Shown here piece by piece: positions 146-53,147 of a stretch of 59,737 bases of DNA. The translations under genes and the position numbers were made by a program. The notes beneath the pieces were generated by a model. That model had not been told where the DNA came from. It did not search any database and saw only the letters and a list, made by a program, of their open reading frames with translations. The stretch lies in IMG/VR virus record IMGVR_UViG_3300034980_000289, positions 1-59,737 of that record. One strand, 5' to 3'. Positions within the stretch are counted from its first letter, which is position 1. Each line of letters opens with the position of its first letter. Origin of the DNA: a virus (lineage: Duplodnaviria; Caudoviricetes).

Positions 146-367
146 TTATGGGGGATAAAAGATATCGAGAATAAAGTCATATTGTGGGGTGTAAAAGTGT
201 ATGTAAGCGGCAGTATGCATCTATCAGCAAAGGGATTCGCTTTCTTAAGAGCGATTATTCAAAATCATGCTAAAGATAGAAAAGCATTAGAACGAGCCGA
301 GTTAAAAAAATTAGGTAAAACACCTAAATTACTTAAAATAAAAAGGAAGGAATTAGGTTATGATTAA
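1..367 (+). CDS. 3' part of the junction-spanning hypothetical protein
   Basis: In frame with the 59564 ATG after circularisation; its stop overlaps the next gene. Confidence 0.75.
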   Translation, partial: YNRYPKATQIRDLLFQRDKETKKTLKKVIGLIRENIPSEDTDDKTHKFLWGIKDIENKVILWGVKVYVSGSMHLSAKGFAFLRAIIQNHAKDRKALERAELKKLGKTPKLLKIKRKELGYD

Positions 368-1136: not shown

Positions 1137-1302
1137 ACCTAAAAAGAACCCTAGTTCTGTTTACGATTGGAAAAATAGAAAAACCAGTTGGCCGTTCAAA
1201 GGAGATGTTGATGACCCTGAATATTTAAAAGCAAGGTCTAAACTTTTTCAAGAGAGCGGCAATGGCTGGTGGTGGGGTCAAAAGAAACCAGAGGAGGAAT
1301 AA
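1117..1302 (+). CDS. Small hypothetical protein
   Basis: Tightly packed between neighbours; stop overlaps the next ATG (TAATG). Confidence 0.6.
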   Translation: MKKRELKPKKNPSSVYDWKNRKTSWPFKGDVDDPEYLKARSKLFQESGNGWWWGQKKPEEE

Positions 1303-2132
1303 TGAACATAGATTGCCCTGTCATAATACCTTATTATGGAGGTAAATACTATCTAAGTCAGAAGCTAGTTCCCATGATTCCAGCCCACGATAAATACATA
1401 GAAATGTTTGCTGGGGGTCTCTCAATGTTCTTTAGGAAAAAGAAAGTAGGGTGGAATGTAGTTAACGATTTAGATAAAAATGTAGTAAACTTATACACTG
1501 TTTTAGCTGAAAAATTTGATGAGTTTGTTCATCATATAGGCTGGTATGTTAAGAGCAGGAGTTTACATGAAATACTTAAAGAGTACATTAAAAGCACAAA
1601 AGTTGAAGTCATACCAGACGCTAAAAGAGCAGCTAGATATTACTATTTAATTCGTTGTTCATTTAATAATAATCCTCAAGGGACATTTAGTAAAAATTCA
1701 GCTGACTGGAATACCGATAACTTAATTGAAGATTTAAAGTATTCAAGAAAATATCTCAATGATGTTTTGATTGAAAATTTAGATTTTAGAGTCTTAGTGG
1801 ATAGGTATCCTCCTGGTGAAGGAGATTTTTGGTACTTAGACCCACCTTACATTGTGGCAGGAACTAGAAATGATTACTACATACACTCTCTTGTTGAACA
1901 AGACCATATTGACTTGCGTAACATTTGCAAAGTTATAGATGATAGTGGTGGTAATTTTATGGTAAGCTATGATGATAAACCTGAAGTCCATGAACTCTAT
2001 AAAGATTATGAAATAGAGGCTATCCCAGTAAAATACGCTGGTCAAACACAGAAAAGAGAATATAAAAACGAATTAGTAATAACTAATTATGAAAAAGTAG
2101 CTTATCAAGAAACCTTATTCAATGGAGGATAA
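1302..2132 (+). CDS. Dam/D12-class N6-adenine DNA methyltransferase (orphan)
   Basis: PYYGGK, EMFAGG, NDLD and catalytic DPPY motifs; GGAGG RBS before ATG 1302. Confidence 0.93.
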   Translation: MNIDCPVIIPYYGGKYYLSQKLVPMIPAHDKYIEMFAGGLSMFFRKKKVGWNVVNDLDKNVVNLYTVLAEKFDEFVHHIGWYVKSRSLHEILKEYIKSTKVEVIPDAKRAARYYYLIRCSFNNNPQGTFSKNSADWNTDNLIEDLKYSRKYLNDVLIENLDFRVLVDRYPPGEGDFWYLDPPYIVAGTRNDYYIHSLVEQDHIDLRNICKVIDDSGGNFMVSYDDKPEVHELYKDYEIEAIPVKYAGQTQKREYKNELVITNYEKVAYQETLFNGG

Positions 2133-2133
2133 T

Positions 2134-3450
2134 ATGAAAACAGATATCAAACTTCCCCCATGGGATGGTGAGGCAGAAGAATGTGTACTTGGTGCTATAC
2201 TATTAGGAGGATGGGATACATATGATACAGTTTCAGCAATCATACAAGATGATGAAGCTTTCTATGACCATTTGACTAAACATACTTGGAGAGCTATGGG
2301 AAGACTTAGAAGAGCTGAGCAAGTAATAGAACCTTTGTCACTGTTAAACGAAACCAAAAAGAAGAATAATGCTGTTACTGCATATTGGATGACTGGACTT
2401 CCCGATAAGGTTGTTGGAGCTTCAATGGCAAAACAGCATGCTAAGATGGTTTGGGAAAAATTCGTTCAACGACAAGTTGGGAAGACCGCTTACAAACTAT
2501 ATAACGCAAGTTTCTCTAGCATAGACACTACTCGTGCTATCTTAGAAGAACATGGCAGGTATGTAGATGACTTAAGGGCTCTCCTGCCTTCCAGGAATGG
2601 GGATATAGGTACGATAATTAAAGAGACAGTAGATAAGATTATTAAGGGTAACGCTATGATACCCTTTAATTTTAAACCATTAGATGAATTTTCAGGCGGA
2701 ATGACGCGAGGTGAAATAACCGTACTAGGCGGCAGACCAGGGCATGGCAAAACTACATTAGTAGTTAACCTTATTAGAAAATTAGTTGAAGATGGTAAGC
2801 GAGTGTTGCTATTCAATCGTGAAATGAGCAATACTGAAATGATGAGAAAAGTAATAGTAATGGAATCTAAAGACATAACATATAACGATGTAAGGCAAAA
2901 TGAGATTCCTAAAAAAGTAGAAGAAAAATTGTTAAACGGAGTTTCATCCACCGTGAGTGATAAATATGCCAATTTATTAATGTATGAAGATATACGTTCA
3001 TTGGAAGAATCCCTCGGTGAGATTACTAAGTTTAAACCAGATGTGATTATAGATGATTACATTCAGTTGATTTCAGTCGGGAGTGCTTCTTTAGAACGAA
3101 GATTCCAGTTGGAAAAGATTATGAATGATTATAAATGGATTTGTAAAAAGGAAAACTGTTCTGCTATCCTAGTAAGTCAGTTAAACAGAGAGATAGAAAG
3201 AAGGTTCGACCCAAAGCCTAAGCTTAGTGATTTTGCTGAAAGTGGAGTTATAGAACAGTGTGCTGAATCCGCGCTGTTCGTATACTATCCCTATCAGTAT
3301 GATGATGAAAAATTCAGTCCATATTCTATCAGCGTAATAGCTGCTAAATCTAGATATGGATTAACTGGAGAAAGCACTTTAGGTTTTAACGGGAATAAGT
3401 GTAGATTCTATAATACAGAATCGAAAGCTTTACTTGAATCTAAGAAGTGA
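2134..3450 (+). CDS. dnaB: DnaB-like replicative helicase
   Basis: N-terminal EAEECVLGAIL, Walker A GGRPGHGKT, DYIQL, SQLNR, SGVIEQ, KSRYG. Confidence 0.95.
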   Translation: MKTDIKLPPWDGEAEECVLGAILLGGWDTYDTVSAIIQDDEAFYDHLTKHTWRAMGRLRRAEQVIEPLSLLNETKKKNNAVTAYWMTGLPDKVVGASMAKQHAKMVWEKFVQRQVGKTAYKLYNASFSSIDTTRAILEEHGRYVDDLRALLPSRNGDIGTIIKETVDKIIKGNAMIPFNFKPLDEFSGGMTRGEITVLGGRPGHGKTTLVVNLIRKLVEDGKRVLLFNREMSNTEMMRKVIVMESKDITYNDVRQNEIPKKVEEKLLNGVSSTVSDKYANLLMYEDIRSLEESLGEITKFKPDVIIDDYIQLISVGSASLERRFQLEKIMNDYKWICKKENCSAILVSQLNREIERRFDPKPKLSDFAESGVIEQCAESALFVYYPYQYDDEKFSPYSISVIAAKSRYGLTGESTLGFNGNKCRFYNTESKALLESKK

Positions 3451-3647
3451 TAATAAGCAAACACATCAGTTGCCGAGGTTGTAATTATCAACAACACGGT
3501 GACTGTTTGTGGTTTGCAAGACCTAAAAGTATACCTCATGAAGTATTCTCGAAAGGATGTAAGCATAGAGTGTCTAAAGTTGAATCAATACCTCATCACC
3601 CAGCTGTAGAAAGGATTGTAGACCTATTCCACGGCGAACTGATATAG
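3447..3647 (+). CDS. Small Cys-rich hypothetical protein
   Basis: GTGA overlap with dnaB; CxxC...C...C. Confidence 0.6.
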   Translation: MIISKHISCRGCNYQQHGDCLWFARPKSIPHEVFSKGCKHRVSKVESIPHHPAVERIVDLFHGELI

Positions 3648-4120
3648 CATACATAGGAATAGACCCTGGTTATAACGGTGGTATATCAGTTGTGTGGCCA
3701 GATAGAACTATTGATGCTTATAGATTCCCAGCTAAACTATACAAACTTCCTAAAATATTACTGTCTATTAAAAGCCATTGTCATGTAGGGGGATTTAAAG
3801 AATGTTGGATGATAGAAGATGTTCATGCATTAAGGGGTTCATCAGCTAAGGGAACTTTTACTTTTGGTAGAAATTTAGGTGTTTGGGAAGGTATCATGTC
3901 AACACTAAATATAAAGTGGATAAAGATTAGTCCTAAAGAGTGGCAAAAAGAATATAAATTAACAGTTCAAGGTAAAGAAAGAAAAAATAAATTAAAAATA
4001 TTCGCTCAAAGATATGTTAATAATTCTAAGAGTACGTTCAACGTTACATTTGCAACTGCAGATGCTATTTTAATTGCTAAATATTACAAAAGAAAGGGCT
4101 TTAGCTATGAAAAACTTTAA
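3644..4120 (+). CDS. RuvC-like Holliday junction resolvase (probable ATA start)
   Basis: In-frame AYIGIDPGYNGG lies upstream of the listed GTG; also IEDV, FTFG, PKEWQK and ADAILIA. Confidence 0.85.
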   Translation: MAYIGIDPGYNGGISVVWPDRTIDAYRFPAKLYKLPKILLSIKSHCHVGGFKECWMIEDVHALRGSSAKGTFTFGRNLGVWEGIMSTLNIKWIKISPKEWQKEYKLTVQGKERKNKLKIFAQRYVNNSKSTFNVTFATADAILIAKYYKRKGFSYEKL

Positions 4121-4388: not shown

Positions 4389-7156
4389 TAATATTCTATT
4401 AAATTTTCATATTCAGTTCTAGATTTTTGTTTTTGTATAATATTAGATAGATTCTTCATTTTAGTCTTATTACCAGCTCTTGGGTCGTACATCTTATTCC
4501 CTTTAACTGGAGCACCAACCATTGACCTAAAGCCTTTATTAATCTTTTTAGTTGTTTCAGAAGGATATGCTTTAAATAAATGTCTTACCATATCATATCC
4601 TCTTCCCTCTACTATAGATGGTATTATCTTAGACTGTAATTGACCTGCCATTGTATTAATCTTATACCACCTAGATTCTGCCTCTTTATCTTTTGTCATT
4701 CTAGAATAATCAAGGTTGCCAAAGCTTATTTTATATAAGTCTGATTTTTCTCCATTTAATAACCCTGAAGCTTCAAAAGCATATCTAATGTCATCAGGCA
4801 ATGGCCCGAGGAACTCACCTACAATTCCTCTTGTTATTTTGTCAGCGTCATCTCTATCAACTATAGTTTCATGCAACCCTTTTATTTTTTCAATAGTATC
4901 ATTTTCATAAATATTATATGCATTAACATTAAATATTCCACTTAACAATCCAACCATAGCATATATAGCACCATATCTATAGTGATACATCATCTCAGGA
5001 GATGTCCAATCCCCGACCATAACAGATTCTTTCGCACCCCTTATCATTTTAGCTTGTGTAGATATTAATGAGTGAGGGTAGTGCATTAACATATTAAACC
5101 AAGAAGACACAGCTCCAGCTGCAACTTTTCCAGAATATATTGGATTACCAGCTGAATCTAATTCGCCAGGGACTCCTCTAATAAATTTTGATTTAGCATG
5201 TGGAGCATATTCATAAGCCCAACTATTAACTGCTTTAAGAGCAAAATTCTTAGCATCTTGCTCAACCATCTTAGGTGCTCTATTAGAACCAAATTGTCTT
5301 TCAAGACCCTTCATATAGTTACCATTATTAATCATAGTATCGTAATAGAGAGCCATAGACCTTCTGAACATATATCCTCTTTGCATATTTTCAGTAATTC
5401 TATGAAATACTAGAGACTTGTCAACAGTCCAATTCATTCCCTGCTTTAAAGCCTTGCCAACCCCAGACCCATCTTTATATTCAAAAGAGCCAGTGGCTTC
5501 ATTAAACTTAATATCTTGAACCTTTACTCCCTCAGATGGCAATAAACCTTGAGTGATTAATTCCCTAGCTCCCTCAGCCTCGTTAAAAGCGAAACCAGTT
5601 TCTTTTTCAGCCCTATCTACCATATCAGATAATTCTTTGCTTTGTAATGATTCCTTTGCACTTTTCATTGCCTTATGTCCAAAATAAGAATAATAGAACC
5701 CAGCGGATGCCAAGTTTCTAACAGAACCAGTAAACCCTAAACCCATAGTCCTAATAGCTGTTGTCGCCCCTATAGTATATGTTAAATCGTTTATCCATTT
5801 AGGTCTATCTGCATATCCTCTTGTAGACACAGTGTAAATATCTTCTAAATAATCAGACATGCTCTGAGTATAATCACCAGTTATTTTTTTATTTTTTGGA
5901 AGTTTTCTTAAAAATTTTGTATAACTTGATTTAAGTCTTTGTTGTTTATTAAATGTAATAACATCAAATCCATAAGTTCTCATCACTGCCAAAGGGTCTT
6001 GCTGATAATATAAATCTATATTTTCTAATCTTTTTTTAGAATGCTTATGTTGACCGAAGTCTTCAATTAAAGGCAATAAATCATTTATTTCCTTTTCACC
6101 AATTCTAGATTTCTTCGCATCATACTCAGTTATATTTCTTGCATATATAGAATCAACCTTTTTTCTTAGTGAGGCTAAATCTTCTATTATATATTGTGGA
6201 TAATATGCATCATTGTCTCGTATTGCCTTCTGAGCGTACTGTATTTTCTCAACCTGATTCTTCAGTCTATTATTAACCGTATAAGCTATATCCTTTCTAC
6301 TGGAAATTCCATTTGAGAGTAATATATTATCTATCAATGTATCTAAACTATTATCAAGAACCTGTCCCATCTCTTTAAAATATTCTTTAGAAACTTTAGC
6401 GGCTTTTACAACTCCATTATGATAATTAGCAGCTTTCTTTGTAAATGAACCATCAGAGTTAGAGGTTTGTATTAAATCTCTAAATTGACTAATAATAAGA
6501 CCGTCATCTGATTCCATCAATTGCTTAATCTTAGCCTCCAAAGAAGCTCTTTTGCCTTCTGTGGGAGCTGTAGACATATCTTGTTCTAACCTTGCTATGT
6601 CACTAGAAACCTTTATCATATTACTGCCAAATATACCAGCCTTAGCTATGTCTTTATAAGCACCCACCAAAGCAGAAGCGACAACCCTACCCCTATTTTT
6701 TACTTTTGCTATTTGATTTCTTTCATACGCAACTGCTCTATCTATATTTTCATAAAACTCAAGAGCTAGTGGGTCTCTTGAAACTATATCTTGAGGTACT
6801 CCAATAATATTTTCAAATGGATTAACAAATCCTTTCTTTCTTAACCTTACTTCATATTGGTCGATTTCCCTCGACAGTCTAGCAACTTCATGTTCTGATA
6901 ATATAAAATCTGGATGAAATCTCTTCATTGGATTAATTCTTGCTCTTAATATTTTATCTATCATCCTAAAAGAACCTCCAAAATCATGGCTATTTGAGGA
7001 TACCTCCATTGGCCCGTGAAACTCCTGTATAGCTTTACTACTATTCCACTTATTTTGAATTTTAGTTATATTGTCAAAATGCTTCTCATGATTTTTTTCC
7101 CCAAAGCTTTTCTCTCCAGGTGTCCCAATATGATTACATCCATTAATTAACGCCAT
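4388..7156 (-). CDS. Large internal virion/ejection protein
   Basis: 922 aa, appears helical, last gene of the structural operon after the giant protein. Confidence 0.6.
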   Translation of the reverse strand: MALINGCNHIGTPGEKSFGEKNHEKHFDNITKIQNKWNSSKAIQEFHGPMEVSSNSHDFGGSFRMIDKILRARINPMKRFHPDFILSEHEVARLSREIDQYEVRLRKKGFVNPFENIIGVPQDIVSRDPLALEFYENIDRAVAYERNQIAKVKNRGRVVASALVGAYKDIAKAGIFGSNMIKVSSDIARLEQDMSTAPTEGKRASLEAKIKQLMESDDGLIISQFRDLIQTSNSDGSFTKKAANYHNGVVKAAKVSKEYFKEMGQVLDNSLDTLIDNILLSNGISSRKDIAYTVNNRLKNQVEKIQYAQKAIRDNDAYYPQYIIEDLASLRKKVDSIYARNITEYDAKKSRIGEKEINDLLPLIEDFGQHKHSKKRLENIDLYYQQDPLAVMRTYGFDVITFNKQQRLKSSYTKFLRKLPKNKKITGDYTQSMSDYLEDIYTVSTRGYADRPKWINDLTYTIGATTAIRTMGLGFTGSVRNLASAGFYYSYFGHKAMKSAKESLQSKELSDMVDRAEKETGFAFNEAEGARELITQGLLPSEGVKVQDIKFNEATGSFEYKDGSGVGKALKQGMNWTVDKSLVFHRITENMQRGYMFRRSMALYYDTMINNGNYMKGLERQFGSNRAPKMVEQDAKNFALKAVNSWAYEYAPHAKSKFIRGVPGELDSAGNPIYSGKVAAGAVSSWFNMLMHYPHSLISTQAKMIRGAKESVMVGDWTSPEMMYHYRYGAIYAMVGLLSGIFNVNAYNIYENDTIEKIKGLHETIVDRDDADKITRGIVGEFLGPLPDDIRYAFEASGLLNGEKSDLYKISFGNLDYSRMTKDKEAESRWYKINTMAGQLQSKIIPSIVEGRGYDMVRHLFKAYPSETTKKINKGFRSMVGAPVKGNKMYDPRAGNKTKMKNLSNIIQKQKSRTEYENLIEY

Positions 7157-7165
7157 AATATTTCC

Positions 7166-10100
7166 TTATTTACACCACGGTTTCTCAATAGTCCCTCTTT
7201 TCAAAAATCTTATAAAACCCCTGGCTCCCTCTGCGTTTTGGTACTCCACCCTGCTGGTTGGTACTATCATCCCTTGATTGTCAAAGAATTTTCTAATCAT
7301 TGGGTCAGTATAACCAACTAATGTTCCAGCCATATTAGCATCTTCAGTACTTAAAGCATTATATTCTGTGGAAAATCCCTTGTTATATAACTTTCTATCC
7401 ATTTCAAACTCAGCGCCTTCGCCTCTACTGGAAGCATTCCACTCTTCAACTATTCTACCAGTTAATCCTTTATCTCCTTCACTAACATATCCCATCCCAT
7501 TGTTATCCATCCACTCAAATAGTTCTGTGAATAACCTTCTATTTATTTTAAAGGTAGGAAAATCAATTCGTTTGCCACCTTCTACATTCACAGTGGTAAA
7601 TCCCTCAACGCTTCTTGGTGTTATTAAATATTTTACAACTTGCTCTACCATATCCTGGTCAAAGTCCTTGCCGTCAAAAGCCCACTCTCTCATATGAGCA
7701 TCTATAAGTCTCTGAGATTTTGTTTTAGCTCTTGTATAAATTTCCTTTCTTCTAGCCCTATTCTGGTTTACCAACTGATTGGCTTGGAAACCTTCTGCGT
7801 TTAATCCACCTATCAACATTTCAGATTTATCTATAAAATCTATTTCTGAGAAAGACTGGTTCTTATTACCCCTTACAATATCTCTAGCAGTCACATGGGC
7901 AGTAATCGCCATAAGTCCAAAGCTATGTCTTAAATCAGAATGTGTCATATCAGTAGGCATCAAAGGATTTCTTAACTCTATATAAGAGTATCCGTCATCT
8001 TTTTGATAATAACTCCATTTTGGCTTTATATTCCCAACAAATTGAAGTTTTTGTGAATCCATATCAGCTAGTCTATCAGCTGTCCCTCTATACTTCCAAA
8101 CATAAAGATTATATTTATCATTATTTGTCCTTACAGCAGTGCCATTCCCACTCTTAATAGACTTTCTATGCTTGTATGCATTAGGGTCTGTAACTATACT
8201 ATCCCATGCCTTATCTTTAATGTAGTTTAAAGCCTTTTGTGTCGAGCCAATTCTTCTCTCTAAAGCAAGTAATTTTTCTGAGTTAGGAGCGTATCTTTCA
8301 CCTTGATACCATCTGTCAAGAGACTTTAAAGCTTGTAATTCAGAGTTTAGAGCAGCTGCAACAGCTCCTCTTTTCTGAGCCTTCGAAACAGATACATCAA
8401 TTCTACTATCTAAAACAGATTCAAATTCAAGCATCGTATCCAAGTCGCCATTAGTTATACGTTCAACAATAGATGTTGTTGATAGATGACCATTTATCAA
8501 GGCCAAAGTTTCTATACTAGAGACCATTCTATCTGCGAAATCACCAACCTGCCTTCTCCATTCTCTAGGAACATTCCCCCAAACCTCATCTCTTGGGTTT
8601 AAGAAGCTTTTATTATTTAGTCTTCTTAGAATATAACCAGCTTGACCTAAATCTATTCTATCCGCCTGTACAGTCGTAGAATTTTGTTTTGTATAATTAA
8701 AATTAATTATTGGGTCTACATTAAAATTCTTTGGAAGACCTTCTCTAAATAATTCTCCTAAATTTTGTAATATTTTCTGCTTGTCTTTGCCTGTTTTGTT
8801 TAATACCTCTTTCAATCCAGGTAGTTGACCTTTACCAAAAAAGAGATGAATTGTATCAAGAGCTAAATCTTTATTACCCTTACCGCCATTTGCTGCTAAT
8901 GCTTTTTTAAAAACCCTATCAAATAAAACTCTATTCATTTCCCTAGAGTCGCCAAACAAACTTTGCAAATCACCATAAGCTTTCCTCATCTCTTTGTCAG
9001 TTGGCTGTCTACTACCACCCTCATCATAAACATCATTAAATAACTTTGAACCTTCCCTAACCATCTTCAGAGCTTCCTTAATAACCTCTCTTGATGCTAA
9101 CCCCCAATGAGCAGCAGGAGTATCTCCACCTTTACTCCAAAACAAACTATTATCTTTACCAACCAAGTAATGACTTAACTCAACATCGGTAGGTCTATCA
9201 CCAAACAACATAGCATTTAAAAGAGCCTCTCTACCCTCTTTTGCTATAGCATTTGTACCTTTATTAACATCCACAGAGCTTTGATTAAATATAAATTGTC
9301 TCATTACTGCATTAAATTTTCGAGACGCAGGGGAGTTCCCCTCAGCGTATGGAGTGTTGGCTATATCTAACATATTAAATGTTGTATATTTGGAATTGCC
9401 ATGTCTGTCCTTACCAACATATAGCTTTATAGACATCTGAGCATTGCTTAAATGAGTTAAAGCAGATTTAATTCCAATAGCAGAACCAACATTCATCTTT
9501 TGTTGTTCATACTGCCCCATATAGTCTCCCATACCAAACTTTTGAGTTGCCCCAGCTACGAAATTTTCATCAAGACCAAATAGATTAATAACTGGTGATT
9601 CTTTAGGCATTTGTCTATAGTCAGTAACTTTAGCAAAGTTTTTCATATTATTTGCCATAATATCTATACCCCTATCGAAGTTTAGATAGAATCTATCACC
9701 ATCGTTATCTCTTTGGAAACCAACCCTTTGGTCATAAGAATTTATTCTAACTATCTTACCATCGGTATGGTCAGCAGTCTTTTCTCCCATTTTACTTACT
9801 CGTAAGGTAGCCAAATCATAACCAACTCTAGGTATAGGATAACCTTCTATTGTTAATCCAAAATCAGCTTTCTTAAAAAGGTTACTCGAAACCCCAGCTT
9901 TTTTAAAAAGCATATGCCCCACTTTCTTAATAAAGCCTGCATCAGTAGACCTTCCTGCTATAACCTCTACCCATTTTTGTAGTTCACCGTATGTCTTTGG
10001 CCCGTTCATTCGTTCTCTTTTCGGTAAAGGTTTTCCTTTTTTGTCTACGCCTTCCCAAAGCTCTCTTAATCTAGTGTAAACTTTTAGAGCATCTTGATTT

Positions 10101-13100
10101 CGTTTGACATTCTCCTTGACAGTATAAGGGTCATAATCATTTTCCATAACTCTGCCATTACTATCTTCTTTTCTCATAGCAAGGGTTTTACCAAAAGCTC
10201 TATTCTTTTCTATTTTTCCTTCTTTCCCTATTAAATTGTCTACTCCTCCATTATTAAATACAAATGTAATGTCATTAAAATTATTGATAAGTTTCCCCGC
10301 CATATCAAAAGGCAAATCAGTCTCACCTATATTTGTTTGAACTCTATCTACAATTTCTTTTCCTTCTATTACTTTAGCAAAGTTAGGAATCCTTAATTCG
10401 CCATTCATATCAGGAGCTATCATAGCATCTAGAGAGTTTTCGTTGTTCATTTTGCGAAGTAAATCAAGCAACGGGCCTTGCATAAAGCGTCTAAGAGTAT
10501 GTCTTATTATCGGATTATCGGATGTCATTCCAACCTCTATAAGTCTCTCAGATAAAGAAATTGCACCTTCTGTGTATCTCATTCCTTCTTGCTTTTTTGC
10601 ATTAAAGAAAATTTGAGCCAAAGCTGAGTTGCCATCATTTCTAGACTTATCAAAATAAGAGACTTTATCAATCATGTCCTCAAGTCCTTGCCATACTCTC
10701 AATTCCTCATGATATCCCCTGCTTTGATAATCACCAATAGAATGAGACCTTGAAGAAGCACTCTTTTCAACATTAACAACGCCTAGACCGATACTAGATA
10801 TATCAACTCCAATTTGATTCTTAACACCTAATTTATTTATTTGACCAATCCAATCATTAGTATTGCCGCCAATTTGGAGAGGCTCTACATTCCCCATTAG
10901 CTTAGCAGAAGACTCACCTAATAAAACATCTATCTTTGAATTATCCATTTTAGCTGCGACAGTAGGGTCATAAACATAATATCCCTTCGCCATCATAGTT
11001 CCATCAGATTCATTGTAAAATGTATAAGGCTTTATACCATTAAATTCATTCGGGTCTCTACCTTTAACAGCTGCTAGAACCTTCATAAATCTTGTTCCAA
11101 TATATTTAACACCATCAATAGAAGAAGCATCTAAGCTTGGATAAAATGTATCTTGTCCATTTTCACGCCTTTCTGCATCTCTCTGCAGTTCAAGCCTCAT
11201 ATTTTTAGCGAGAGCTTTTTGAGCCTTGCTAACATTAGGATTATTTTCCATGGCTTGTAAAGTTCTTTTAACAAGACTTCCAACATGGAATGGGCTTTGT
11301 CTATTCCAACTTCCATCTCCTAGCTTAGCCTCATCACGAAATACACCATAATTAACCTTGTTGTTCTTGTAGTGCATTAAATCTTTTTTGAGATTACCCC
11401 AAGTTTTAGTCCTCTTTATCATATAATTAAAAACTTTTTCATTCATAGCCTGACTTGTTCCACCATTCGCTAGGGCAGCTCTTTGGTGAATCTTAGATTC
11501 CCACAATTGTCTTTCACTAGTATTTTTAAATATGTCTGGGTTTAAATAATCTTTTATCCATCCTTGTTTCATATTGGAATCAATAAATAGTGCAGACATT
11601 TTCAATTCTGTTGTTCTGGGTGTATCTCCACCATTTAATACATCATCCCACATTTTCTTAAAAGATTCCTTTTGAGCCCCTTTTAGGCTCTTTGATGAGG
11701 TATCATACCAATCCCTAAACATAGAATTAAGAATAATATGATTTGGTTTGTTGTTCTCAAAAAGGAAATTTTCTGTACCAACTTTTATAAAGAATGGATT
11801 TTCGCCCTTGCTAGGCATCCCTAGAGTAGCTAATTTGGTGTCAGGCGCAAAAGCAGTACCGTCCTTTGGTAAAAGTTCCTCATATAATTTATGTTCTAAA
11901 TATGTATTTGATATCTTCGCTCCTTCGACGCTGCCCTCCATCAAATCCACAATATATTTATTTAAATCATTCTCCCTAGACCATATATTCACAGAGCTTC
12001 TTCTTGGTCTTCCATATAGCCCAGATTCTTTTCCTTTTTCAATAAGCCTTGGAAGTTGTCCGCTGTTATTTAAATACCAACCATCAAATTGTCGTAAAAA
12101 CTCAACAGTGGGACTTGTAAATCTTGAATCAGTTGGCTCAAAAATTAAATCACCATCAACAAAACGAGCACTTCTTATTTCTCTAGAGTTAATTGCATAA
12201 TGAAGAAGAGTAAGACCGTCTCTCTCTTGAAACTCTCTAACTTTATCATTTATGGCTTGTTGCTTTTTCCACGGAGAAAGATTATCAAACTCCTTACCCG
12301 ACCCCAATCTCTCACGAAGAATTGCATCCATTCTATCTCCAGGATTCGAGTGGTCAGCTATGTCCCGTATTAATTCAGCATCTAACTGATTCGGATTGTC
12401 TTTAGACATTAAATCATATTCTTGACCTATTTGTATAGCAGTTTTAATGTCATCTCTTCTCTGATGCTGGTCTAAAGTTGTTCTTAACCTGTTAACAGCT
12501 TCTTCAAATAATCCTTTATTGGATATATTCTTTTGTAGGTTTAACTGAGCCTCCATCTGAGTTCTAGCTTTTTCTAAATGTTGCCAGCTCACGCCTGGCT
12601 TATCAGCAAAAGCTTGTAGAACATCCGCTAGGGTGTGCTTACTCTCAGAGTCTTTCATACCAGCGAACTCCATTAGAGCCAATTTAGCTTCTCTTTTAGC
12701 TGAAATAATAGACTGAGCCCCAACAGCGCCGTCTTCAGAGTATCCCATTAAAATATTTAAAGCTTTTCTAAATTCGGCTTTTTGATGAATCTCACCCATA
12801 ACGCCCTGCAGTAAACGCTCTCTTACTGTAGTGACATATGTATTCAACTCATCAGATGTTTCCTCATATCCCTCAATATTCATCTCTCTAACTTTTTTGT
12901 TTAAATCTTTACGAAGAGACCTAAATTCTTTAATTAATAGCTTAGAAGCATCCGTTGGTTTGCCAGAAGTTTCTTCTGTATATGACTTTATTAAGTCATT
13001 AAGTCTGTCTCTAACTTGAACCAATGTTTCAAGTCTGTCTCCCAATGGAACATCAATATTAAAGTTTTGAGATAATACATCTGATATTCTAGCTATTTCT

Positions 13101-16100
13101 TTTTCAATCCCAACTGATACCCCAGTCCCTATTTTGTCAACAGCCGCTATAATTTCAGCATTTAAATTCTTTAAGTGTTTTGTATCTCTAGACTCATATA
13201 AAGTTCTTATTTCATTTAACGTAGGCATTCTTAATTCTTTGCCATCGGGAAGAACCTCAGTTGATTCAAGTAGATAACTTTCTTCTACTACATTATCAAC
13301 AGCTTTCATTTCCTTTCTTATTTCTTGAGATTCTTTTAATCTAGCATTCCATTCTGATGAGTTTGGTTCTATCCCCTGTTCTGTCATCATTTTTTCGATA
13401 ACACGGTCGCTCATTACAAAGAAAGTTCCATCACGATTAGGAACAACAAATCCTATTTTCATCCCATCTTTAAATAATTGAGCCGTTTCGACAGGTAGGT
13501 CAACATTGTCTAGATACCTTTTCATGAAATAATCTACACCAAGCGTACCAACTCCATTAATTGACATTTCACTTGGTTTATCACCAAATACTTCACCATA
13601 CGCATCATAGATTTTTTTCATATCCTCTTCAGTGACCTTTACAGTCTCATTATGTCTTTCAGGATTTCGAGTAGTTTGAGACCTCATTTCCCAGAGTTCT
13701 CTCATCGACTGTTTCATAACATTGAAATTTTCTTCTGCCTCTGAGGTAGGTGCTTCTTTTCCTTCTTCTTTTAATGCTTTCTTTTTATCAGCAGAGTCAA
13801 AGATGACCTGTTTGTCCCAATTAAGAGGAAACAAGCCGTTTCTATTAAATAGAGTTTCCCACCCAGCTGAAAATTCTGCAATTGCAGCAGCAGTTTCCTT
13901 AGAAGATGATTTTCCTACGATAAAGTCATATAATCTATTTGCCCTCTTCCATTGTTGAGAGCTTATCATAGCATCTAAGAAAACATTATTATTAATGGAT
14001 GGCTCTCCAGCGTAAGAAGTAAGCATTTGATTAGAGCCAGGATAAAACGACCTAACTAACATAGATTCATATTTCTTAATAACATCTTGAACCGCCTGAA
14101 GTCCTCCTTTTTCGCCCCACCCAACCTTGTCGTTACCTACTTTATCTAGATTTTTACCATCAAATGGTTTTCCTGAGGAGGAAGCAATTCCTTCTCTTTT
14201 CAGTAACTCTATGGTAGTGTGTAAAGAATTAATAGTCCCATTAACACTTGCTTCATCTCCAAATTTAATTACCCCTGCCTTAATAGTTTCTTTGCCATCT
14301 CTTCCTGTTACAAAATCAATTGGAATACCTAAATCCCTCAACTCTTTAAACATCCCAATATATACTTGCTTTACATGCTCTCCCATTAACTCGCTTAATT
14401 TAGCCTTAGCCCCCTGAAAACCTAAGTTTTTAATTGTTTCCCCATCTAATTCCACTGCTTCGAGCTTATCTTTAATTGTTGTCAGTTGCTCTTTACTTAG
14501 ACTTTTAACATCTATCACATCTTTTTCTCCCTTAATCCCACTAGCTTTCACATGAGAATTATAAAGAGTAGCCAGCTCAGCGACTATTTTATGAGTATGG
14601 CTATTGAAAGCATTAAGGTCAACTGCAACCCCCTCTCCACCAGTCCCTTCTAATAAATCAGTTTGTTCCCCCTTAACATTATCAAATATTTCAATAATCT
14701 TCTTAGCATCTGGGCCTGATATAACTTTAGAAACATCTTCCATTGCTTTATCAAATATGAACATTCCTTGTAAATGAGTAGGGTCTATATCAAGAGTTCT
14801 CAATACTTCATGATATCTACCCATATCCATTTGATATTGCATAGCTTCTTTCTTACCCCATTCGCCCTTAGATTTAGTCATCAAACCTGCCATAATCATA
14901 TGAGTATACAATTCTAACGGTTCCATGTGTTGAAATTCGCCATTTTGCCAAGAAGGAGCATTCATAGCCATAGCACCTACTATCATTCTTGGAGAAGAGC
15001 CTAAGAAATCACCTATATAATCCCATTTCCATTTCTTAGACGCATCGGATATAATATTCTTCCTCATTAATCCTAGGTAGTTAATAACATCATCTAAAGG
15101 CATATTATCAACTTCGTTTAGTAATTGCTCTCCAGTCTTTCCTTTAAACACCTGGTCTTTCAAGGCACTTCTATTAACAATATCTTTATGTGTACCATTT
15201 AACATCTGTTTCATTAGATGTCGCATACTACCTTCAGCATTTGCCCCTAAACCATCAGCCATCTTTTGATAGTTAGTGTTTTTAAATTTATTTAGTAATA
15301 ATCCCCATCCTTGCTTAATACTCATATTACCAGTTTTACCTCTAAACCCTGGCAAGCTTCTAATAGCTGGAAAAAGAGCTGACATATATACAGTATTCCA
15401 TGCAACGTGACCTGCATCCCACGGCATATCATGAGTAGATGCTTGTAACTTAGAAGAAACGGCTCCATGTACCCCAAGTAGTGCAATATCTTGAACCGCC
15501 ATACCTAAGTATTTAGCTATTGTATCATTAATTCTTCCTCCAAAAGCTCTTCCAAAGACTTCATGACCCCACTCAGCTATATTATTTACATTGTAACCAT
15601 TTTTCATTACTTTATCTGTAAATCTACCAGCTATGTCGTCAGCCAATCCCCTCATTCTGCTCGGGCCCATCTTAACCCCAGAGTCTTGAAGAGCCCTTAT
15701 AACAGCGTTTACAGAAGCTTGGTTGAAGTTTTTAGTTGCCTGTTCAGCTCCCTCAAGACCTGCCTTTACCCCAGCTAGGCTTGGTATTCTCTTTTTAGCC
15801 TCATTGACTAGCTCTCTTTGAACCGATTGACCTGAAGCCTGTAATTGCTTAGCTATTTGTGTATTTTTTCTAAGACTACCAGCCTTTGTTAAATTTTTAT
15901 GGTCTTTAGGGTAAAGTTTTCCTGCTCTATCTAGAATGCGTTGAGATGATAGAACCTCATCAGCCGCTTTATTTACGCCCTTTACAGCCCCTTTCTTAGC
16001 TATTCTAGAAGCACCAAATCCCAATAGTTTAGCTATTCCTCTAAAACCACCAGGCCCAGGTAAGAATAATGCACCACCCCCAGCTCCAACAGCAGCTGCT

Positions 16101-16474
16101 TTCTCACCACCAGATAAATCTTCCCATTGGAAAGGCTCATCAATCCCCATTTGTTTTGCGAGAAACCCAGGGGCTTCCCATAAATATGATTCTAGTCCGT
16201 ACCAAAGACCAACTCCTAAAGTCTTTAATAAGCTTGAATCTTGTTCAGGGGCTCCGTGAACAGCTTTCCCAAGAGGGGCTCTTTTTGTAGTATTTCCCGA
16301 TGGGGCAGATATTAACGGGGCACTAAAAGTCTTATTAGTCAGTCCCATATCTTGGGATTTCTGATTAGATATATATGTATTTAACTTTGTGAGCTGGTCA
16401 CCATCTAACTCAATCCCCCTTAAAGCTAGTTTATTTAAATACTGCTGTTTTACATTATCGAAATTTTGTGGCAT
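7166..16474 (-). CDS. Giant ejection protein, probable virion-packaged two-barrel RNA polymerase
   Basis: 3102 aa; ordered motifs SIDG..YI, GIKP, AKG, ESSAK, PIPR and DNDGD (9695..9709). Confidence 0.75.
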   Translation of the reverse strand: MPQNFDNVKQQYLNKLALRGIELDGDQLTKLNTYISNQKSQDMGLTNKTFSAPLISAPSGNTTKRAPLGKAVHGAPEQDSSLLKTLGVGLWYGLESYLWEAPGFLAKQMGIDEPFQWEDLSGGEKAAAVGAGGGALFLPGPGGFRGIAKLLGFGASRIAKKGAVKGVNKAADEVLSSQRILDRAGKLYPKDHKNLTKAGSLRKNTQIAKQLQASGQSVQRELVNEAKKRIPSLAGVKAGLEGAEQATKNFNQASVNAVIRALQDSGVKMGPSRMRGLADDIAGRFTDKVMKNGYNVNNIAEWGHEVFGRAFGGRINDTIAKYLGMAVQDIALLGVHGAVSSKLQASTHDMPWDAGHVAWNTVYMSALFPAIRSLPGFRGKTGNMSIKQGWGLLLNKFKNTNYQKMADGLGANAEGSMRHLMKQMLNGTHKDIVNRSALKDQVFKGKTGEQLLNEVDNMPLDDVINYLGLMRKNIISDASKKWKWDYIGDFLGSSPRMIVGAMAMNAPSWQNGEFQHMEPLELYTHMIMAGLMTKSKGEWGKKEAMQYQMDMGRYHEVLRTLDIDPTHLQGMFIFDKAMEDVSKVISGPDAKKIIEIFDNVKGEQTDLLEGTGGEGVAVDLNAFNSHTHKIVAELATLYNSHVKASGIKGEKDVIDVKSLSKEQLTTIKDKLEAVELDGETIKNLGFQGAKAKLSELMGEHVKQVYIGMFKELRDLGIPIDFVTGRDGKETIKAGVIKFGDEASVNGTINSLHTTIELLKREGIASSSGKPFDGKNLDKVGNDKVGWGEKGGLQAVQDVIKKYESMLVRSFYPGSNQMLTSYAGEPSINNNVFLDAMISSQQWKRANRLYDFIVGKSSSKETAAAIAEFSAGWETLFNRNGLFPLNWDKQVIFDSADKKKALKEEGKEAPTSEAEENFNVMKQSMRELWEMRSQTTRNPERHNETVKVTEEDMKKIYDAYGEVFGDKPSEMSINGVGTLGVDYFMKRYLDNVDLPVETAQLFKDGMKIGFVVPNRDGTFFVMSDRVIEKMMTEQGIEPNSSEWNARLKESQEIRKEMKAVDNVVEESYLLESTEVLPDGKELRMPTLNEIRTLYESRDTKHLKNLNAEIIAAVDKIGTGVSVGIEKEIARISDVLSQNFNIDVPLGDRLETLVQVRDRLNDLIKSYTEETSGKPTDASKLLIKEFRSLRKDLNKKVREMNIEGYEETSDELNTYVTTVRERLLQGVMGEIHQKAEFRKALNILMGYSEDGAVGAQSIISAKREAKLALMEFAGMKDSESKHTLADVLQAFADKPGVSWQHLEKARTQMEAQLNLQKNISNKGLFEEAVNRLRTTLDQHQRRDDIKTAIQIGQEYDLMSKDNPNQLDAELIRDIADHSNPGDRMDAILRERLGSGKEFDNLSPWKKQQAINDKVREFQERDGLTLLHYAINSREIRSARFVDGDLIFEPTDSRFTSPTVEFLRQFDGWYLNNSGQLPRLIEKGKESGLYGRPRRSSVNIWSRENDLNKYIVDLMEGSVEGAKISNTYLEHKLYEELLPKDGTAFAPDTKLATLGMPSKGENPFFIKVGTENFLFENNKPNHIILNSMFRDWYDTSSKSLKGAQKESFKKMWDDVLNGGDTPRTTELKMSALFIDSNMKQGWIKDYLNPDIFKNTSERQLWESKIHQRAALANGGTSQAMNEKVFNYMIKRTKTWGNLKKDLMHYKNNKVNYGVFRDEAKLGDGSWNRQSPFHVGSLVKRTLQAMENNPNVSKAQKALAKNMRLELQRDAERRENGQDTFYPSLDASSIDGVKYIGTRFMKVLAAVKGRDPNEFNGIKPYTFYNESDGTMMAKGYYVYDPTVAAKMDNSKIDVLLGESSAKLMGNVEPLQIGGNTNDWIGQINKLGVKNQIGVDISSIGLGVVNVEKSASSRSHSIGDYQSRGYHEELRVWQGLEDMIDKVSYFDKSRNDGNSALAQIFFNAKKQEGMRYTEGAISLSERLIEVGMTSDNPIIRHTLRRFMQGPLLDLLRKMNNENSLDAMIAPDMNGELRIPNFAKVIEGKEIVDRVQTNIGETDLPFDMAGKLINNFNDITFVFNNGGVDNLIGKEGKIEKNRAFGKTLAMRKEDSNGRVMENDYDPYTVKENVKRNQDALKVYTRLRELWEGVDKKGKPLPKRERMNGPKTYGELQKWVEVIAGRSTDAGFIKKVGHMLFKKAGVSSNLFKKADFGLTIEGYPIPRVGYDLATLRVSKMGEKTADHTDGKIVRINSYDQRVGFQRDNDGDRFYLNFDRGIDIMANNMKNFAKVTDYRQMPKESPVINLFGLDENFVAGATQKFGMGDYMGQYEQQKMNVGSAIGIKSALTHLSNAQMSIKLYVGKDRHGNSKYTTFNMLDIANTPYAEGNSPASRKFNAVMRQFIFNQSSVDVNKGTNAIAKEGREALLNAMLFGDRPTDVELSHYLVGKDNSLFWSKGGDTPAAHWGLASREVIKEALKMVREGSKLFNDVYDEGGSRQPTDKEMRKAYGDLQSLFGDSREMNRVLFDRVFKKALAANGGKGNKDLALDTIHLFFGKGQLPGLKEVLNKTGKDKQKILQNLGELFREGLPKNFNVDPIINFNYTKQNSTTVQADRIDLGQAGYILRRLNNKSFLNPRDEVWGNVPREWRRQVGDFADRMVSSIETLALINGHLSTTSIVERITNGDLDTMLEFESVLDSRIDVSVSKAQKRGAVAAALNSELQALKSLDRWYQGERYAPNSEKLLALERRIGSTQKALNYIKDKAWDSIVTDPNAYKHRKSIKSGNGTAVRTNNDKYNLYVWKYRGTADRLADMDSQKLQFVGNIKPKWSYYQKDDGYSYIELRNPLMPTDMTHSDLRHSFGLMAITAHVTARDIVRGNKNQSFSEIDFIDKSEMLIGGLNAEGFQANQLVNQNRARRKEIYTRAKTKSQRLIDAHMREWAFDGKDFDQDMVEQVVKYLITPRSVEGFTTVNVEGGKRIDFPTFKINRRLFTELFEWMDNNGMGYVSEGDKGLTGRIVEEWNASSRGEGAEFEMDRKLYNKGFSTEYNALSTEDANMAGTLVGYTDPMIRKFFDNQGMIVPTSRVEYQNAEGARGFIRFLKRGTIEKPWCK

Positions 16475-50093: not shown

Positions 50094-50468
50094 ATCGCAA
50101 TAGTCAAGTTTAAAGCATTCGACTACTCAGGTGGTCGTGCTCTTAAGCGGTGGCGTGCTCCCAGAATCATAAGCATGGAGTCCGTGAAGCAAGCGTTAGC
50201 CGTAGGCATACAAGCCCTAGCTGTACGTAAGCAAGACAGGTATGCGTGGGAAGAAGAGCAGATAGCTAAAGCTGTATTGCAATTCCTAGAGAACGTTATG
50301 ATTCAAGCTCATACTGAAATGCCCAGAGATGACGCATTAGCTCTTGAAGCATCTATATCTGATGACCTCAAGGACTTATACAATGACATGGAAGCAATTC
50401 AGAACGCACGTGAGTCTTACGGCATGAACCGCAAAATGTCCAAGAAAGCAAAGCTGTTGTCTGGTTAA
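50094..50468 (+). CDS. First early-arm protein (probable ATC start at 50094; ATG at 50175)
   Basis: GGAGA at 50082..50086, 7 nt before an in-frame ATC GCA; open to 50468. Confidence 0.6.
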   Translation: MAIVKFKAFDYSGGRALKRWRAPRIISMESVKQALAVGIQALAVRKQDRYAWEEEQIAKAVLQFLENVMIQAHTEMPRDDALALEASISDDLKDLYNDMEAIQNARESYGMNRKMSKKAKLLSG

Positions 50469-50580
50469 ACAGACAGCAGCAATGCTGCTATATATATATA
50501 TTCAGTGCATATTCATGTATAAGATGAGCATAAGATGAGTATTTCATAGACATACATTCATCTCTATTATATATATACCT

Positions 50581-50610
50581 TTTAATAGAACCTGGGCACT
50601 AACTTAAATA
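50581..50610 (+). promoter_or_regulatory. Putative promoter for the ncRNA cluster
   Basis: AGAACCTGGG-N7-TTAAAT, same layout as the divergent 49916..49939 element. Confidence 0.5.
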
Positions 50611-50628
50611 CCAGGAAAAGTTTAAAAT

Positions 50629-50816
50629 CTTAGTACTTTAGTGTGAAGTAAGCACGTAACTGTGCCGCTGTAGCCACACATTGAAGTGCTAAGTGATATT
50701 TAAAATCTTAGCTCTTAGAGTCAATGATAAAGAACGTATGATTCATCGGTGTAAGCAAGGCGACACTGCCGAGTGTTGGACTGAGTTTATTGAATTATGC
50801 TACTTTAAGAGCTGAG
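50629..50816 (+). ncRNA. Two tandem stem-closed RNA cassettes (50629..50693, 50707..50816)
   Basis: 17-bp and 15-bp closing stems with G-U pairs; both flanked by TTAAAATCTTAG and AGTGATATTT. Confidence 0.6.
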
Positions 50817-50832
50817 TGATATTTTCGCATCA

Positions 50833-51234
50833 TCTAGAATCCAGGGAAACCCTTCCATTAAGGAGCATCCTGTTGCATCAGTTGAAGCAATTTTGGGCAT
50901 TCTGTTTCTTCCGCAGTTTGCCCTAAAAAATTTAACATATCCCCGTTCACATGGGGGATTAATAAATGAATAGACGTGTGATTAGCAATGATGGTGTTGT
51001 GGTTATGCTCAACCAGCCATAGTTCATAATTGTTGTGAAAGCAAAGTTAATCGCGTTCGTATTTTCGGGTATTGCCCAATGGTGATATCTATTCATGAGG
51101 GGATATGAGCACAGCCAGATGGTAAATGGCTGGCGAAAGAGTATTCTAGAAGACTCAGAGCAAAATTTTAAATAACCATGTAAGACCGCTGATTAGGTCA
51201 TAGTTACCAGCATAAATCATGGGCATTGGTTATT
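50833..51234 (+). ncRNA. Multi-branched structured RNA region
   Basis: TCTAGAAT/ATTCTAGA, CATATCCCC/GGGGATATG, ATGAATAGA/TCTATTCAT and AATAACCA/TGGTTATT pairings. Confidence 0.5.
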
Positions 51235-51998
51235 ACATTTGTCTTCGGACATACGGCTGCATATAGTCGTTAGATAAACCTAGAAATAGGTATAAAGTGG
51301 AAGCATCTCAAAGAGGTGTTATAAGCGATACTATTTATAGTATTAAAGTATGCAAATGAGTTATGTACAAGTCTACGGTTAAGTCTCTCTGAGCGGCTAA
51401 GTCTTGTATTTGTGCTTGGGTAAAGTACGATGAGGTAGTGATACCAATAAGAGAACTCATAGTAAATGGCATAAGTGTGCGAGCAGTTGCTGTTTATAGT
51501 CGATATATGTTATCTTGTCGAAAGATTAAGATGATAGTTGTCAAGACCATATTTCATGTTTGTCGCAAAACATAAGTATAGGAGGTTGTCGTAGTATACT
51601 TGCTTGAAAGAGTGAGGTCTACAATCAACAGCACAACCTTCTCCATACCCTTCTTTACCAATTAAGATTGGCAGGCTATACCTGCTATTCATAATAATAA
51701 AGAAAATCAATAGCCTGTTGACGGTTGAGAGCATAGGACACTTTACCTCTGAAACAATGAGGTGCATTTGGGCTCGAAAGGCTCGGTGTTCATGGTGAAA
51801 GCTCAGGTTGGCTTTATAAGTCATTAGGCGGTCGGCAGACCTGCACTGCAGTTATTAACTGTGTATACAACTTAACCGTTACGAGTGATGAGCGTTACTC
51901 ATTGTGTCTGATAGGATACTAGTCGCAAGATTAGTGGACAAAAGAGGGAAACAATACTCCTCTCAAAGACTTATCGCATCAACCTGTAGTCTCAGGGT
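51235..51998 (+). ncRNA. Giant structured ncRNA, GOLLD-like
   Basis: About 760 nt with no + strand ORF; many GNRA/UUCG hairpins; 3' end ...GAGGGAAACAATACTCCCTC...CCTGTAGTCTCAGG resembles, from memory, GOLLD 3' domains; boundaries approximate. Confidence 0.6.
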
Positions 51999-52258
51999 GA
52001 TATTTAGAGCAATTAAGGATGATATGAGAAGTACAAGGGTGTAAGTGTGAGCAAACCGTCTTTACATACCCATAAGCAATCAGTTCTAACTCATAGAACT
52101 AATGAACGAAGTTAGACTACCTTTATTTAGCGTGAATAAAGTAAAAAGGTCACCTGCGTCTTGGAGACGACAAGCTATACGGTATAGCTCGGAGGCATGA
52201 GTATGTACAAAGCCAATGAACAAAGCACCATTTTTTAACTAATAAGAGGGTATTAACT

Positions 52259-52729
52259 ATGACTAAAAGAGTAAAAGTTAAATTAAATATAAAACCACAA
52301 GCAATTATATGTGATGTAGATGGTACAGTTGCTTTAATGCACGGTAACAGAACACCGTTTGAATGGGATAAAGTTTGGAGTGATAAGCCTAATGATTGGG
52401 TAATAGATTTAATAGAATCATATTGTTTGATACAAAAATCTTATAATAAAGATTCTAATCTAATATTTTTATCAGGAAGATGTGATGTATGTTTTGATGA
52501 TACTAAAGAGTGGCTTGAAAAGTATTTTCATATTCCATTTGAATTATATATGAGACCAAAGGCTCAAGAATTTGAGAAAGATGCTAAGATAAAGCATGAG
52601 ATATATATTAATGAAATTAAACCTAACTATGATGTACGGTTTGTAATTGATGATAGAAAACAAGTGGTAGATATGTGGAGAAACGTAGCAGGTTTACCAG
52701 TAGCTCAAGTAGCAGAAGGGAATTTCTAA
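52259..52729 (+). CDS. HAD-family polynucleotide 3'-phosphatase (T4 PNKP phosphatase-like)
   Basis: DVDGT, LSGR, LYMRP, K, IDDR..VVDMWR. Confidence 0.88.
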   Translation: MTKRVKVKLNIKPQAIICDVDGTVALMHGNRTPFEWDKVWSDKPNDWVIDLIESYCLIQKSYNKDSNLIFLSGRCDVCFDDTKEWLEKYFHIPFELYMRPKAQEFEKDAKIKHEIYINEIKPNYDVRFVIDDRKQVVDMWRNVAGLPVAQVAEGNF

Positions 52730-52866
52730 TGAGTAAAAAGAAAGAAATAATTATTAGTAGTGGTAAAAAGATGCAAATGGTAGTTATTCAAACACCTATT
52801 GCTGGGATAAAGAATAGAAAAGGTGAACAGGCAATAGATTCAATCACTAAACACAGAAAAAAATAA
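52729..52866 (+). CDS. Small basic hypothetical protein
   Basis: TAATG coupling to the phosphatase gene (MSKKKEII...). Confidence 0.55.
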   Translation: MSKKKEIIISSGKKMQMVVIQTPIAGIKNRKGEQAIDSITKHRKK

Positions 52867-52868
52867 TT

Positions 52869-53147
52869 ATGGATAAAAGTGATAGAACAACTATGATAGA
52901 TGCCCTTCATTCTGTTGGCATTTATAAACAATTGCTTGATAGTTTAAATGATGATAAAATACAATCATTGTTTAGTTTAATTGGATGGGCAGCTTCCTCC
53001 TCTTTTACTGATGATATCAAGGATGAAGAGTGTGAACACACTGGCAATAAGGAAGTTGCTGAAGAGTACTATGGAAGAGAAGAGAGCCAATTCACCACTT
53101 ATTATATCTGTGAAGATTGTGGAGAAGAAGTGGCTGGTGAAGAATGA
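52869..53147 (+). CDS. Hypothetical protein with a Zn-ribbon C-terminus
   Basis: CEH...CEDCG. Confidence 0.6.
   Translation: MDKSDRTTMIDALHSVGIYKQLLDSLNDDKIQSLFSLIGWAASSSFTDDIKDEECEHTGNKEVAEEYYGREESQFTTYYICEDCGEEVAGEE

Follow-up and report, generated by a model that had tools for sequence, protein, structure and literature searches.

Background

The tRNA operon of bacteriophage T4 is an example of an operon in which transfer RNAs (tRNAs) and stable RNAs are co-transcribed, and the early region of T7 carries RNase III processing hairpins that are long, intercistronic and related in sequence, within an early polycistronic transcript. GOLLD is a giant RNA of phages and prophages that forms a 14-mer cage, and it is described as often lying near tRNAs and as having no known function (10.1101/2024.12.08.627333; PMC5737381; PMC7567579). 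Its 3′ region is described as conserved and its 5′ region as less so in two of these reports (10.1101/2024.12.08.627333; PMC5737381), one of which proposes co-transcription in phage tRNA islands of this kind (PMC5737381). With the cage structure solved, the adjoining tRNAs are the one recurring clue to the role of this RNA.

Here we describe a GOLLD locus in IMG/VR virus record IMGVR_UViG_3300034980_000289, analysed over its entire length of 59,737 bp (hereafter the window; estimated completeness 100 %). In this lineage GOLLD occurs without any tRNA and is accompanied instead by a mosaic of small, apparently folded RNAs. We interpret positions 50469-52258 as a non-coding RNA island, with a GOLLD core co-transcribed with exchangeable small RNA modules and with the phosphatase gene that follows as an unrelated passenger, a reading to which we assign a probability of roughly 0.6.

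The GOLLD core

The island would lie at the start of the rightward operon for replication and recombination in a complete marine phage, with GOLLD as its core, five smaller + strand modules upstream (U1, U2, C, V and U4) and a conserved untranslated leader downstream (the tail). Coordinates are those of the window.

50469-50621, + strand: leader, AT-rich, following an open reading frame (ORF) of 97 amino acids (aa); candidate promoter region.
50624-50701, + strand: U1, a hairpin at 50629-50693 (65 nucleotides, nt) flanked by AAAAU (5′) and GTGATATTT (3′).
50702-50824, + strand: U2, a bulged hairpin at 50707-50816 (110 nt) with flanks as in U1.
50822-50933, + strand: C (112 nt), in all close relatives (the window lineage and contig L180) whose sequence reaches this position.
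50934-51165, + strand: V (230 nt), variable, being present, replaced, deleted or relocated in relatives.
51171-51234, + strand: U4, a 64-nt hairpin with a strongly conserved interior, separable from GOLLD.
51238-51998, + strand: GOLLD, comprising a small UUCG hairpin, 5′ domain, linker and conserved 3′ domain.
51999-52258, + strand: tail, an untranslated and conserved leader that separates GOLLD from the next ORF.
52259-52729, + strand: gene for a PNKP-type 3′-phosphatase (156 aa, PF25109), adjacent to the RNA system and judged to lie outside it.

A reading made from the sequence alone had placed a giant RNA within a series of folded units on the + strand. The giant RNA is real and belongs to a known family. 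Rfam 15 (4,227 models) run on 50400-52300 returned GOLLD (RF02032) as the sole family below E = 4; the + strand match at 51581-51998 scores 177.5 bits, the gathering score being 150. It covers positions 1-416 of the 416 in the model, which spans one hairpin, a variable linker and the conserved 3′ domain. Further upstream, nhmmer shows 51249-51466 to be homologous (best E 8e-8) to sequence lying about 750 nt before the 3′ anchor in 17 of the 75 other GOLLD loci compared, a set from which L055, L057, L069 and L096 were excluded since inspection showed the terminal hairpin to be absent. A small UUCG hairpin at 51241-51250 covaries in the related contig L028. Given the Rfam match together with the homology of the 5′ domain, we conclude that the giant RNA is a full-length GOLLD of about 750 nt which starts near 51240-51250; a 5′ domain lies upstream of the linker and the total length agrees with the 750-830 nt or so expected of the family. 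The domain layout used for this comparison is that given in 10.1101/2024.12.08.627333. Antisense to GOLLD there is a 104-aa - strand ORF (51510-51824) that is probably spurious because it is split in L028 into ORFs of 67 and 54 aa.

U2, U1 and the linkers

U1 and U2 had been placed correctly in the earlier reading, and both fold far better than shuffled sequences on the + strand, with z-scores of -5.1 for U2 (-1.4 on the - strand) and -3.5 for U1 (-2.6 on the - strand). RNAalifold applied to four copies of U2 gave 31 pairs, 11 of them with compensatory changes, and a model built from these copies found two more, in contigs L182 and L174. Pairing holds in 96.7 % of the cells of the six-row alignment, and 13 of the 31 pairs change on both sides and keep pairing, a level of covariation reached by none of 500 shuffles; slid controls give one to five such pairs. 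Several positions are G-U in most rows, a pair which only the + strand can form, and between the covarying stems the unpaired loop positions do not vary. U2 is a genuine structured RNA. The distant phages L153 and L182 have it too, and every one of the six copies is oriented in the direction of the downstream genes. Neither the remainder of the window nor the 892 kb searched contained further copies, and the U2 model had no match in the 75 other GOLLD loci. A relaxed pattern scan returned only L154 and L155, neither of which is matched by the model. The U2 core as an exact pattern had no matches in 185,579 species genomes and consequently provided no clue to the host.

These observations bear on whether the hairpins act at the level of DNA, as miniature inverted-repeat mobile elements, recombination hot spots, protein-binding sites or origin/packaging signals between divergent operons. 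The precise presence/absence polymorphism described below and the repeated junction sequences would suit such elements, as would the architecture of U1, with long terminal inverted arms around a swappable interior, and the position of the island next to the small terminase gene and a divergent-promoter region. However, the U2 helices are kept by compensatory and G-U changes that favour the + strand only, and the uniform orientation of the copies and their absence from the remaining sequence searched also speak against a DNA element. We regard this explanation as very unlikely.

U1 and U2 share an 18-nt 5′ flank (D3) and a 21-nt 3′ flank (D1), and their alignment score of 70.5 compares with 32.3 ± 5.4 for shuffled U1. 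From these similarities U1 looks like a short paralogue of U2. Its stem is kept and its apex replaced in L025, L026 and L028, and the module is missing from L031, L032, L174 and L180. We also considered U1 and U2 as a self-cleaving ribozyme, a riboswitch or tRNA-like elements, for which Rfam gives no support.

The sequence repeat that had been noted at the ends of three units was confirmed. GTGATATTT occurs exactly at 50693, 50816 and 51997 on the + strand, three copies in 1.3 kb, out of five exact copies on both strands of the whole window, where 0.54 would be expected per strand; about 8.6e-5 clusters of three within 1.4 kb are expected by chance. Some of the AU-rich single-stranded linkers repeat GTGATATTT and AAAATCTTAG.

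Mosaic organisation of related islands

Relatives were recovered using the 97-aa protein and DNA patterns (L024-L027, L028-L032, L153, L168/L180, L174 and L182). A search with a 16-mer from C gave 26 loci, and of the 24 new ones that were compared three align to the window, representing two new relatives and the contig of L026. Ten related contigs carry the modules in differing combinations and orders, given here from 5′ to 3′ with the window for reference.

Window: U1, U2, C, V, U4, GOLLD, tail.
L024: U1, U2, C, V, then unrelated sequence up to the contig end.
L025 and L028: U1 with another apex, no U2, C, another V, U4 with an extra inserted hairpin, GOLLD, tail.
L026 and L029: as L025 and L028, except that an ORF-like insert replaces V.
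L030: U1, no U2, C.
L031: no U1, no U2; C, another V, U4.
L032 and L174: no U1, a U2 variant, C, no V, U4, GOLLD.
L180: C, a 340-nt insert, U4, V, about 500 nt of other sequence; structural genes 70-80 % identical.
L182: the 340-nt insert of L180, U4, U2, about 300 nt of other hairpins, genes; structural-gene matches 66-74 % identical.
L153: U2 about 30 nt before the first gene; structural-gene matches 66-83 % identical (whole contig L181).

The order of modules is itself variable, with U4 preceding V in L180 and preceding U2 in L182, whose island has no GOLLD match. One U2 copy sits in a contig fragment without a GOLLD match. The whole contigs of L153, L180, L174 and L024 gave no GOLLD match, these being fragments estimated as 19-34 % complete in a search whose control was silent, and cmscan found no GOLLD in L153 and L024 either. 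Breakpoints between modules map to the AU-rich linkers. Each small module is an independent cassette, and the mosaic pattern fits tandem duplication and recombination at linkers. In the 75 other GOLLD loci nhmmer detected nothing homologous to U1, U2, C, V, U4, the leader or the tail; U1, U2, C, V, U4 and the tail matched no Rfam family at E up to 10, nor did the islands of the relatives yield an Rfam match with cut-offs of 0.1 or 1. The small modules are confined to this phage group.

L180 (reverse strand, about 801-1145), L182 (6886-7230) and L026 (about 5660-6130) contain, among their RNA modules, inserts that resemble ORFs and carry strong Shine-Dalgarno-like sequences. L180 and L182 share the 340-nt insert though only 66-80 % identical elsewhere. 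Further non-coding sequence is common to L153 (12440-12760) and L182 (6690-6880) upstream of the modules, and may hold additional undescribed RNA elements.

The small modules might instead be cis-acting parts of a long mRNA leader (RNase III/RNase E hairpins, 5′ stabilisers or attenuators, comparable to the RNase III sites of the T7 early region) that tunes the downstream early genes, with GOLLD embedded in it. No terminator-like site was found on the + strand from 50469 to 52900, leaving the island and the downstream genes unseparated, and the stems of U1 and U2 are long and near-perfect at 15-17 bp. Swapping of the first gene leaves the tail and ribosome-binding region conserved, and U2 of L153 ends close to the first ORF, all of which agrees with a leader. 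However, the downstream neighbour of U2 is not constant. It is C in the window, L024, L032 and L174, an ORF in L153, and in L182 a series of other modules spanning about 300 nt. The conserved unpaired loops of U2 between covarying stems exceed the needs of a nuclease site. The modules also come and go among near-identical phages with their downstream genes unchanged. A leader function for the modules is on balance rather unlikely, and exchangeable RNA modules around GOLLD remain our preferred reading.

C, V, U4 and the tail

The unit that had been drawn at 50833-51150 consists in fact of two modules, C and V, which are found apart in relatives. An 11-nt inverted repeat (I8) does exist where a long-range stem could close 50833-51150, yet the separate occurrence of C and V excludes a conserved helix there. 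C is 84 % identical in L180, a contig whose structural genes show 70-80 % identity; RNAalifold on five sequences gave 29 pairs, two of them compensatory, and folding of the C region (50817-50945) has a z-score of -1.9. The two halves of the V region (50940-51165) have z-scores within -1.9 to -2.3, and a consensus fold of three sequences contains 64 pairs with 13 one-sided changes that keep pairing, two broken pairs and no compensatory changes. V is present in the window, L024 and L180, replaced in L025, L028, L026 and L031, and absent in L032 and L174; its sole small ORF is frameshifted in L024. U4 is a hairpin as predicted, although its folding is weak (z-score -1.2): the outer stem is kept in six sequences from relatives through G-U-compatible and a few double changes, and the interior is nearly invariant. 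C, U4 and V are plausibly structured RNA modules.

The tail had been described as a further folded unit at 52000-52230, which we could not support, folding of 51998-52240 being no better than that of shuffles (z-scores +1.1 and +0.5). It is well conserved, with 91 % mean column identity in four sequences over 51985-52275, an interval that includes the 3′ end of GOLLD and the first codons of the next ORF. A 32-nt deletion in L032 rules out that the tail is coding. Of the array of folded + strand RNAs proposed around the giant RNA, U1, U2, U4 and GOLLD stand, whereas the 50833-51150 unit and the 52000-52230 unit do not; the stretch contains no internal terminator-like site. Energies of duplexes between the modules and GOLLD were no better than shuffles (z-scores -2.0 to +2.0), although these are whole-length duplexes and not meaningful.

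The tRNA slot beside GOLLD

A tRNA or transfer-messenger RNA (tmRNA) lies within 3 kb of the anchor in 31 of the 75 GOLLD loci, upstream in 14 and downstream in 21, and almost always on the GOLLD strand. In the window, ARAGORN found no tRNAs and the Rfam tRNA model had no match at E up to 10 in 50400-52300. The modules had been said to occupy the slot in which other phages place tRNA arrays; the position does match, and the analogy is apt as a positional description because tRNAs flank these GOLLD loci on the same strand, but the modules are not tRNAs. The island would take the place of the same-strand tRNAs found beside GOLLD in other phages. A recurrent fixed arrangement is seen in nine of the 75 loci (L041, L042, L047, L058, L059, L070, L073, L099 and L110), in which a same-strand tRNA-Met follows the GOLLD 3′ anchor by about 146-154 nt, roughly 90 nt past the GOLLD end.

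Transcription

In our model the island would be transcribed as one RNA continuing into the downstream genes, host endonucleases would cut this precursor in the AU-rich linkers, and GOLLD would accumulate as a stable RNA. Parts of the stretch were found in RNA libraries from six among 24 runs, and the coverage of RNA contigs was mapped for four runs, one from each of four studies. Contigs cover 51254-52064 in three runs. Those of run X20 span 51185-52228 and, in addition, the 97-aa ORF and 132 nt of V. One contig of this run joins the L026-type upstream insert to U4 and GOLLD, and another, of 749 nt (51482-52228), extends from the 3′ half of GOLLD into the tail. An adapter-bearing contig ends at about 51254 in both X20 and X22, where homology of the 5′ domain starts at 51249, and another adapter-bearing end at 51162 falls in the V-U4 linker. 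These ends are weak hints of real RNA ends and of processing into discrete RNAs.

The downstream phosphatase

The first ORF downstream of the island is, as had been recognised, a stand-alone HAD_PNKP phosphatase (PF25109, 139.1 bits against a cut-off of 27.6). It matches positions 158-295 of PHROG 505, aligns to 158-301 of T4 PNK and 177-312 of Pnkp1 with E about 1e-20, and has an intact DxDxT motif (DVDGT at residues 19-23). The earlier reading had joined the RNAs and the phosphatase into one system, with the enzyme healing the ends of processed RNAs that serve as decoy, cargo or cage. The adjacency of the gene on the same strand and its intact motif are compatible with this, and L032 retains the arrangement with a phosphatase 100 % identical over the available 92 aa. 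Some phosphatase homologues moreover lie near tRNAs (L005 and L006) or a tmRNA (L007).

The coupling nevertheless fails when related genomes are compared. L028 is 95 % identical over 51185-52261 and carries behind the same leader an unrelated 92-aa ORF without a PHROG hit; the tail and ribosome-binding region are kept and the next genes of the window follow at 88 % and 99 % identity. Because the untranslated leader and ribosome-binding region are retained, this looks like a clean gene-cassette exchange, and the phosphatase is present in two of the three clade members whose sequence reaches the slot. A homologue was found in the flanks, which are of varying length, of one of the 75 GOLLD loci (L048, E 2.4e-6; tblastn with 19 phosphatase queries). 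Conversely, among 22 phosphatase loci of at most 45 % identity, none of the 18 scanned with Rfam contained GOLLD. Profile searches of the complete phage identified no PF09414 (Rnl2-type) RNA ligase and no AAA_33 kinase, the ligase result referring to PF09414 as a PF09511 search was uninformative with a silent control. Neither the 5′-kinase domain nor the PF09414 ligase of a Pnkp-plus-ligase repair pathway was detected in the window. The phosphatase appears to be an exchangeable accessory gene with no specific tie to the RNAs, and we consider an RNA end-healing system highly improbable.

The first gene is swapped exactly at the start codon (window 52238-52261, L028 4870-4895), the unrelated ORF of L028 standing where a 45-aa ORF accompanies the phosphatase in the window and L032. 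ARAGORN found tRNAs in only L005 and L006 of the 22 phosphatase loci, the homologues there lying inside tRNA clusters of 125-130-kb phages. The homologue of L007 (4977-5384) is about 500 nt upstream of a phage-borne tmRNA.

Genomic setting

The structural genes, including a P22-like portal and small terminase, are on the - strand from 4388 to 49526, and the + strand genes run from 50175 onward plus 1 to 4120. The + strand arm encodes a ParB-like protein, a PD-(D/E)XK nuclease, a Sak annealing protein, a Dam methylase and a DnaB helicase, and the island is located just inside it, heading these rightward replication and recombination genes. The 97-aa ORF (50175-50468) precedes the island and the next credible ORF begins only at 52259; the intervening 50469-52258 is gene-free, with + strand ORFs all of 46 aa or less, and its GC content is 36-45 % compared with about 30 % in the genes downstream. 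No GenBank phage was matched by blastn with 50480-52260. Within the structural arm, a 3102-aa ORF on the - strand (window 7166-16474) matches no Pfam family at E up to 0.001 and may be a giant virion or internal protein.

The leader is conserved in the relatives which reach it (A1, A2). Upstream of U1 this conserved AT-rich region contains a perfect 11-nt tandem repeat (1.9 copies, 50519-50540), which could be a regulator binding site. A type III toxin-antitoxin array of the ToxI type was considered and rejected: this repeat is the only tandem repeat, the units are unequal in length and sequence, and the next gene is a phosphatase.

Discussion

Several points weigh against a co-transcribed island of GOLLD and small RNA modules. 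The U2 alignment was fitted to a model trained on four of its six rows, and the 75 GOLLD loci used for comparison were accepted by eye from a pattern scan and not by a covariance model. C, V and U4 show little or no compensatory covariation, which we attribute to the closeness of the relatives. A promoter predicted near 50587 is unsupported: 13 sigma-70-like sites compare with 12.2 expected, leaving no promoter above chance, and the nearest and only such site in the leader (50543-50570) matches at 9 of 12 positions, no better than shuffles. The RNA contigs show neither strand, level nor true termini and come from libraries that may hold DNA. In the four mapped runs they do not fall on U1, U2, C or the phosphatase, which is no evidence of absence.

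A more ambitious proposal treats U2, U4, C and V, together with U1 as a paralogue of U2, as undescribed phage RNA cassettes that accompany or replace GOLLD in marine podophages. They would be released from a single precursor at linker signals that they share, would fill the role of tRNAs, and would act as clients or cargo of the cage formed by GOLLD or as decoys against RNA-targeting host defences. We consider this quite improbable as a whole. The locus does add a few new RNA motifs that can be modelled and surveyed, and its near-identical phages represent natural knock-in and knock-out variants with which to ask whether the neighbours of GOLLD matter. The comparison also removes a tempting but unsupported link to RNA end healing.

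Comparison with known systems

The phosphatase resembles T4 Pnkp and bacterial Pnkp1 (PDB 1LTQ and 4XRP) over the whole phosphatase domain and in the DxDxT motif, but differs from both in consisting of the phosphatase domain alone and in being exchangeable in a close relative. Compared with the RNase III hairpins of T7, U2 has conserved internal loops and occurs in varied contexts, and the modules are placed between non-coding units and not between cistrons.

As in known GOLLD loci, the RNA of the window lies in a phage, is about 750 nt long, matches the whole model and has a homologous 5′ domain, whereas unlike many of them it has no nearby tRNA. Most other GOLLD loci have a U-run or terminator hairpin after the last hairpin, while in the clade of the window this hairpin is followed by GTGATATTT or a near copy and then by the conserved leader.

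Phage tRNA islands beside GOLLD or ROOL likewise consist of small structured RNAs arranged back to back on the same strand, and mosaic content is found in the relatives of the window. The modules differ in not being tRNAs, and since they match no Rfam family the processing logic of RNase P and RNase Z need not apply to them. GOLLD itself is known; what is new is the mosaic, non-tRNA setting of small modules in which it is found.

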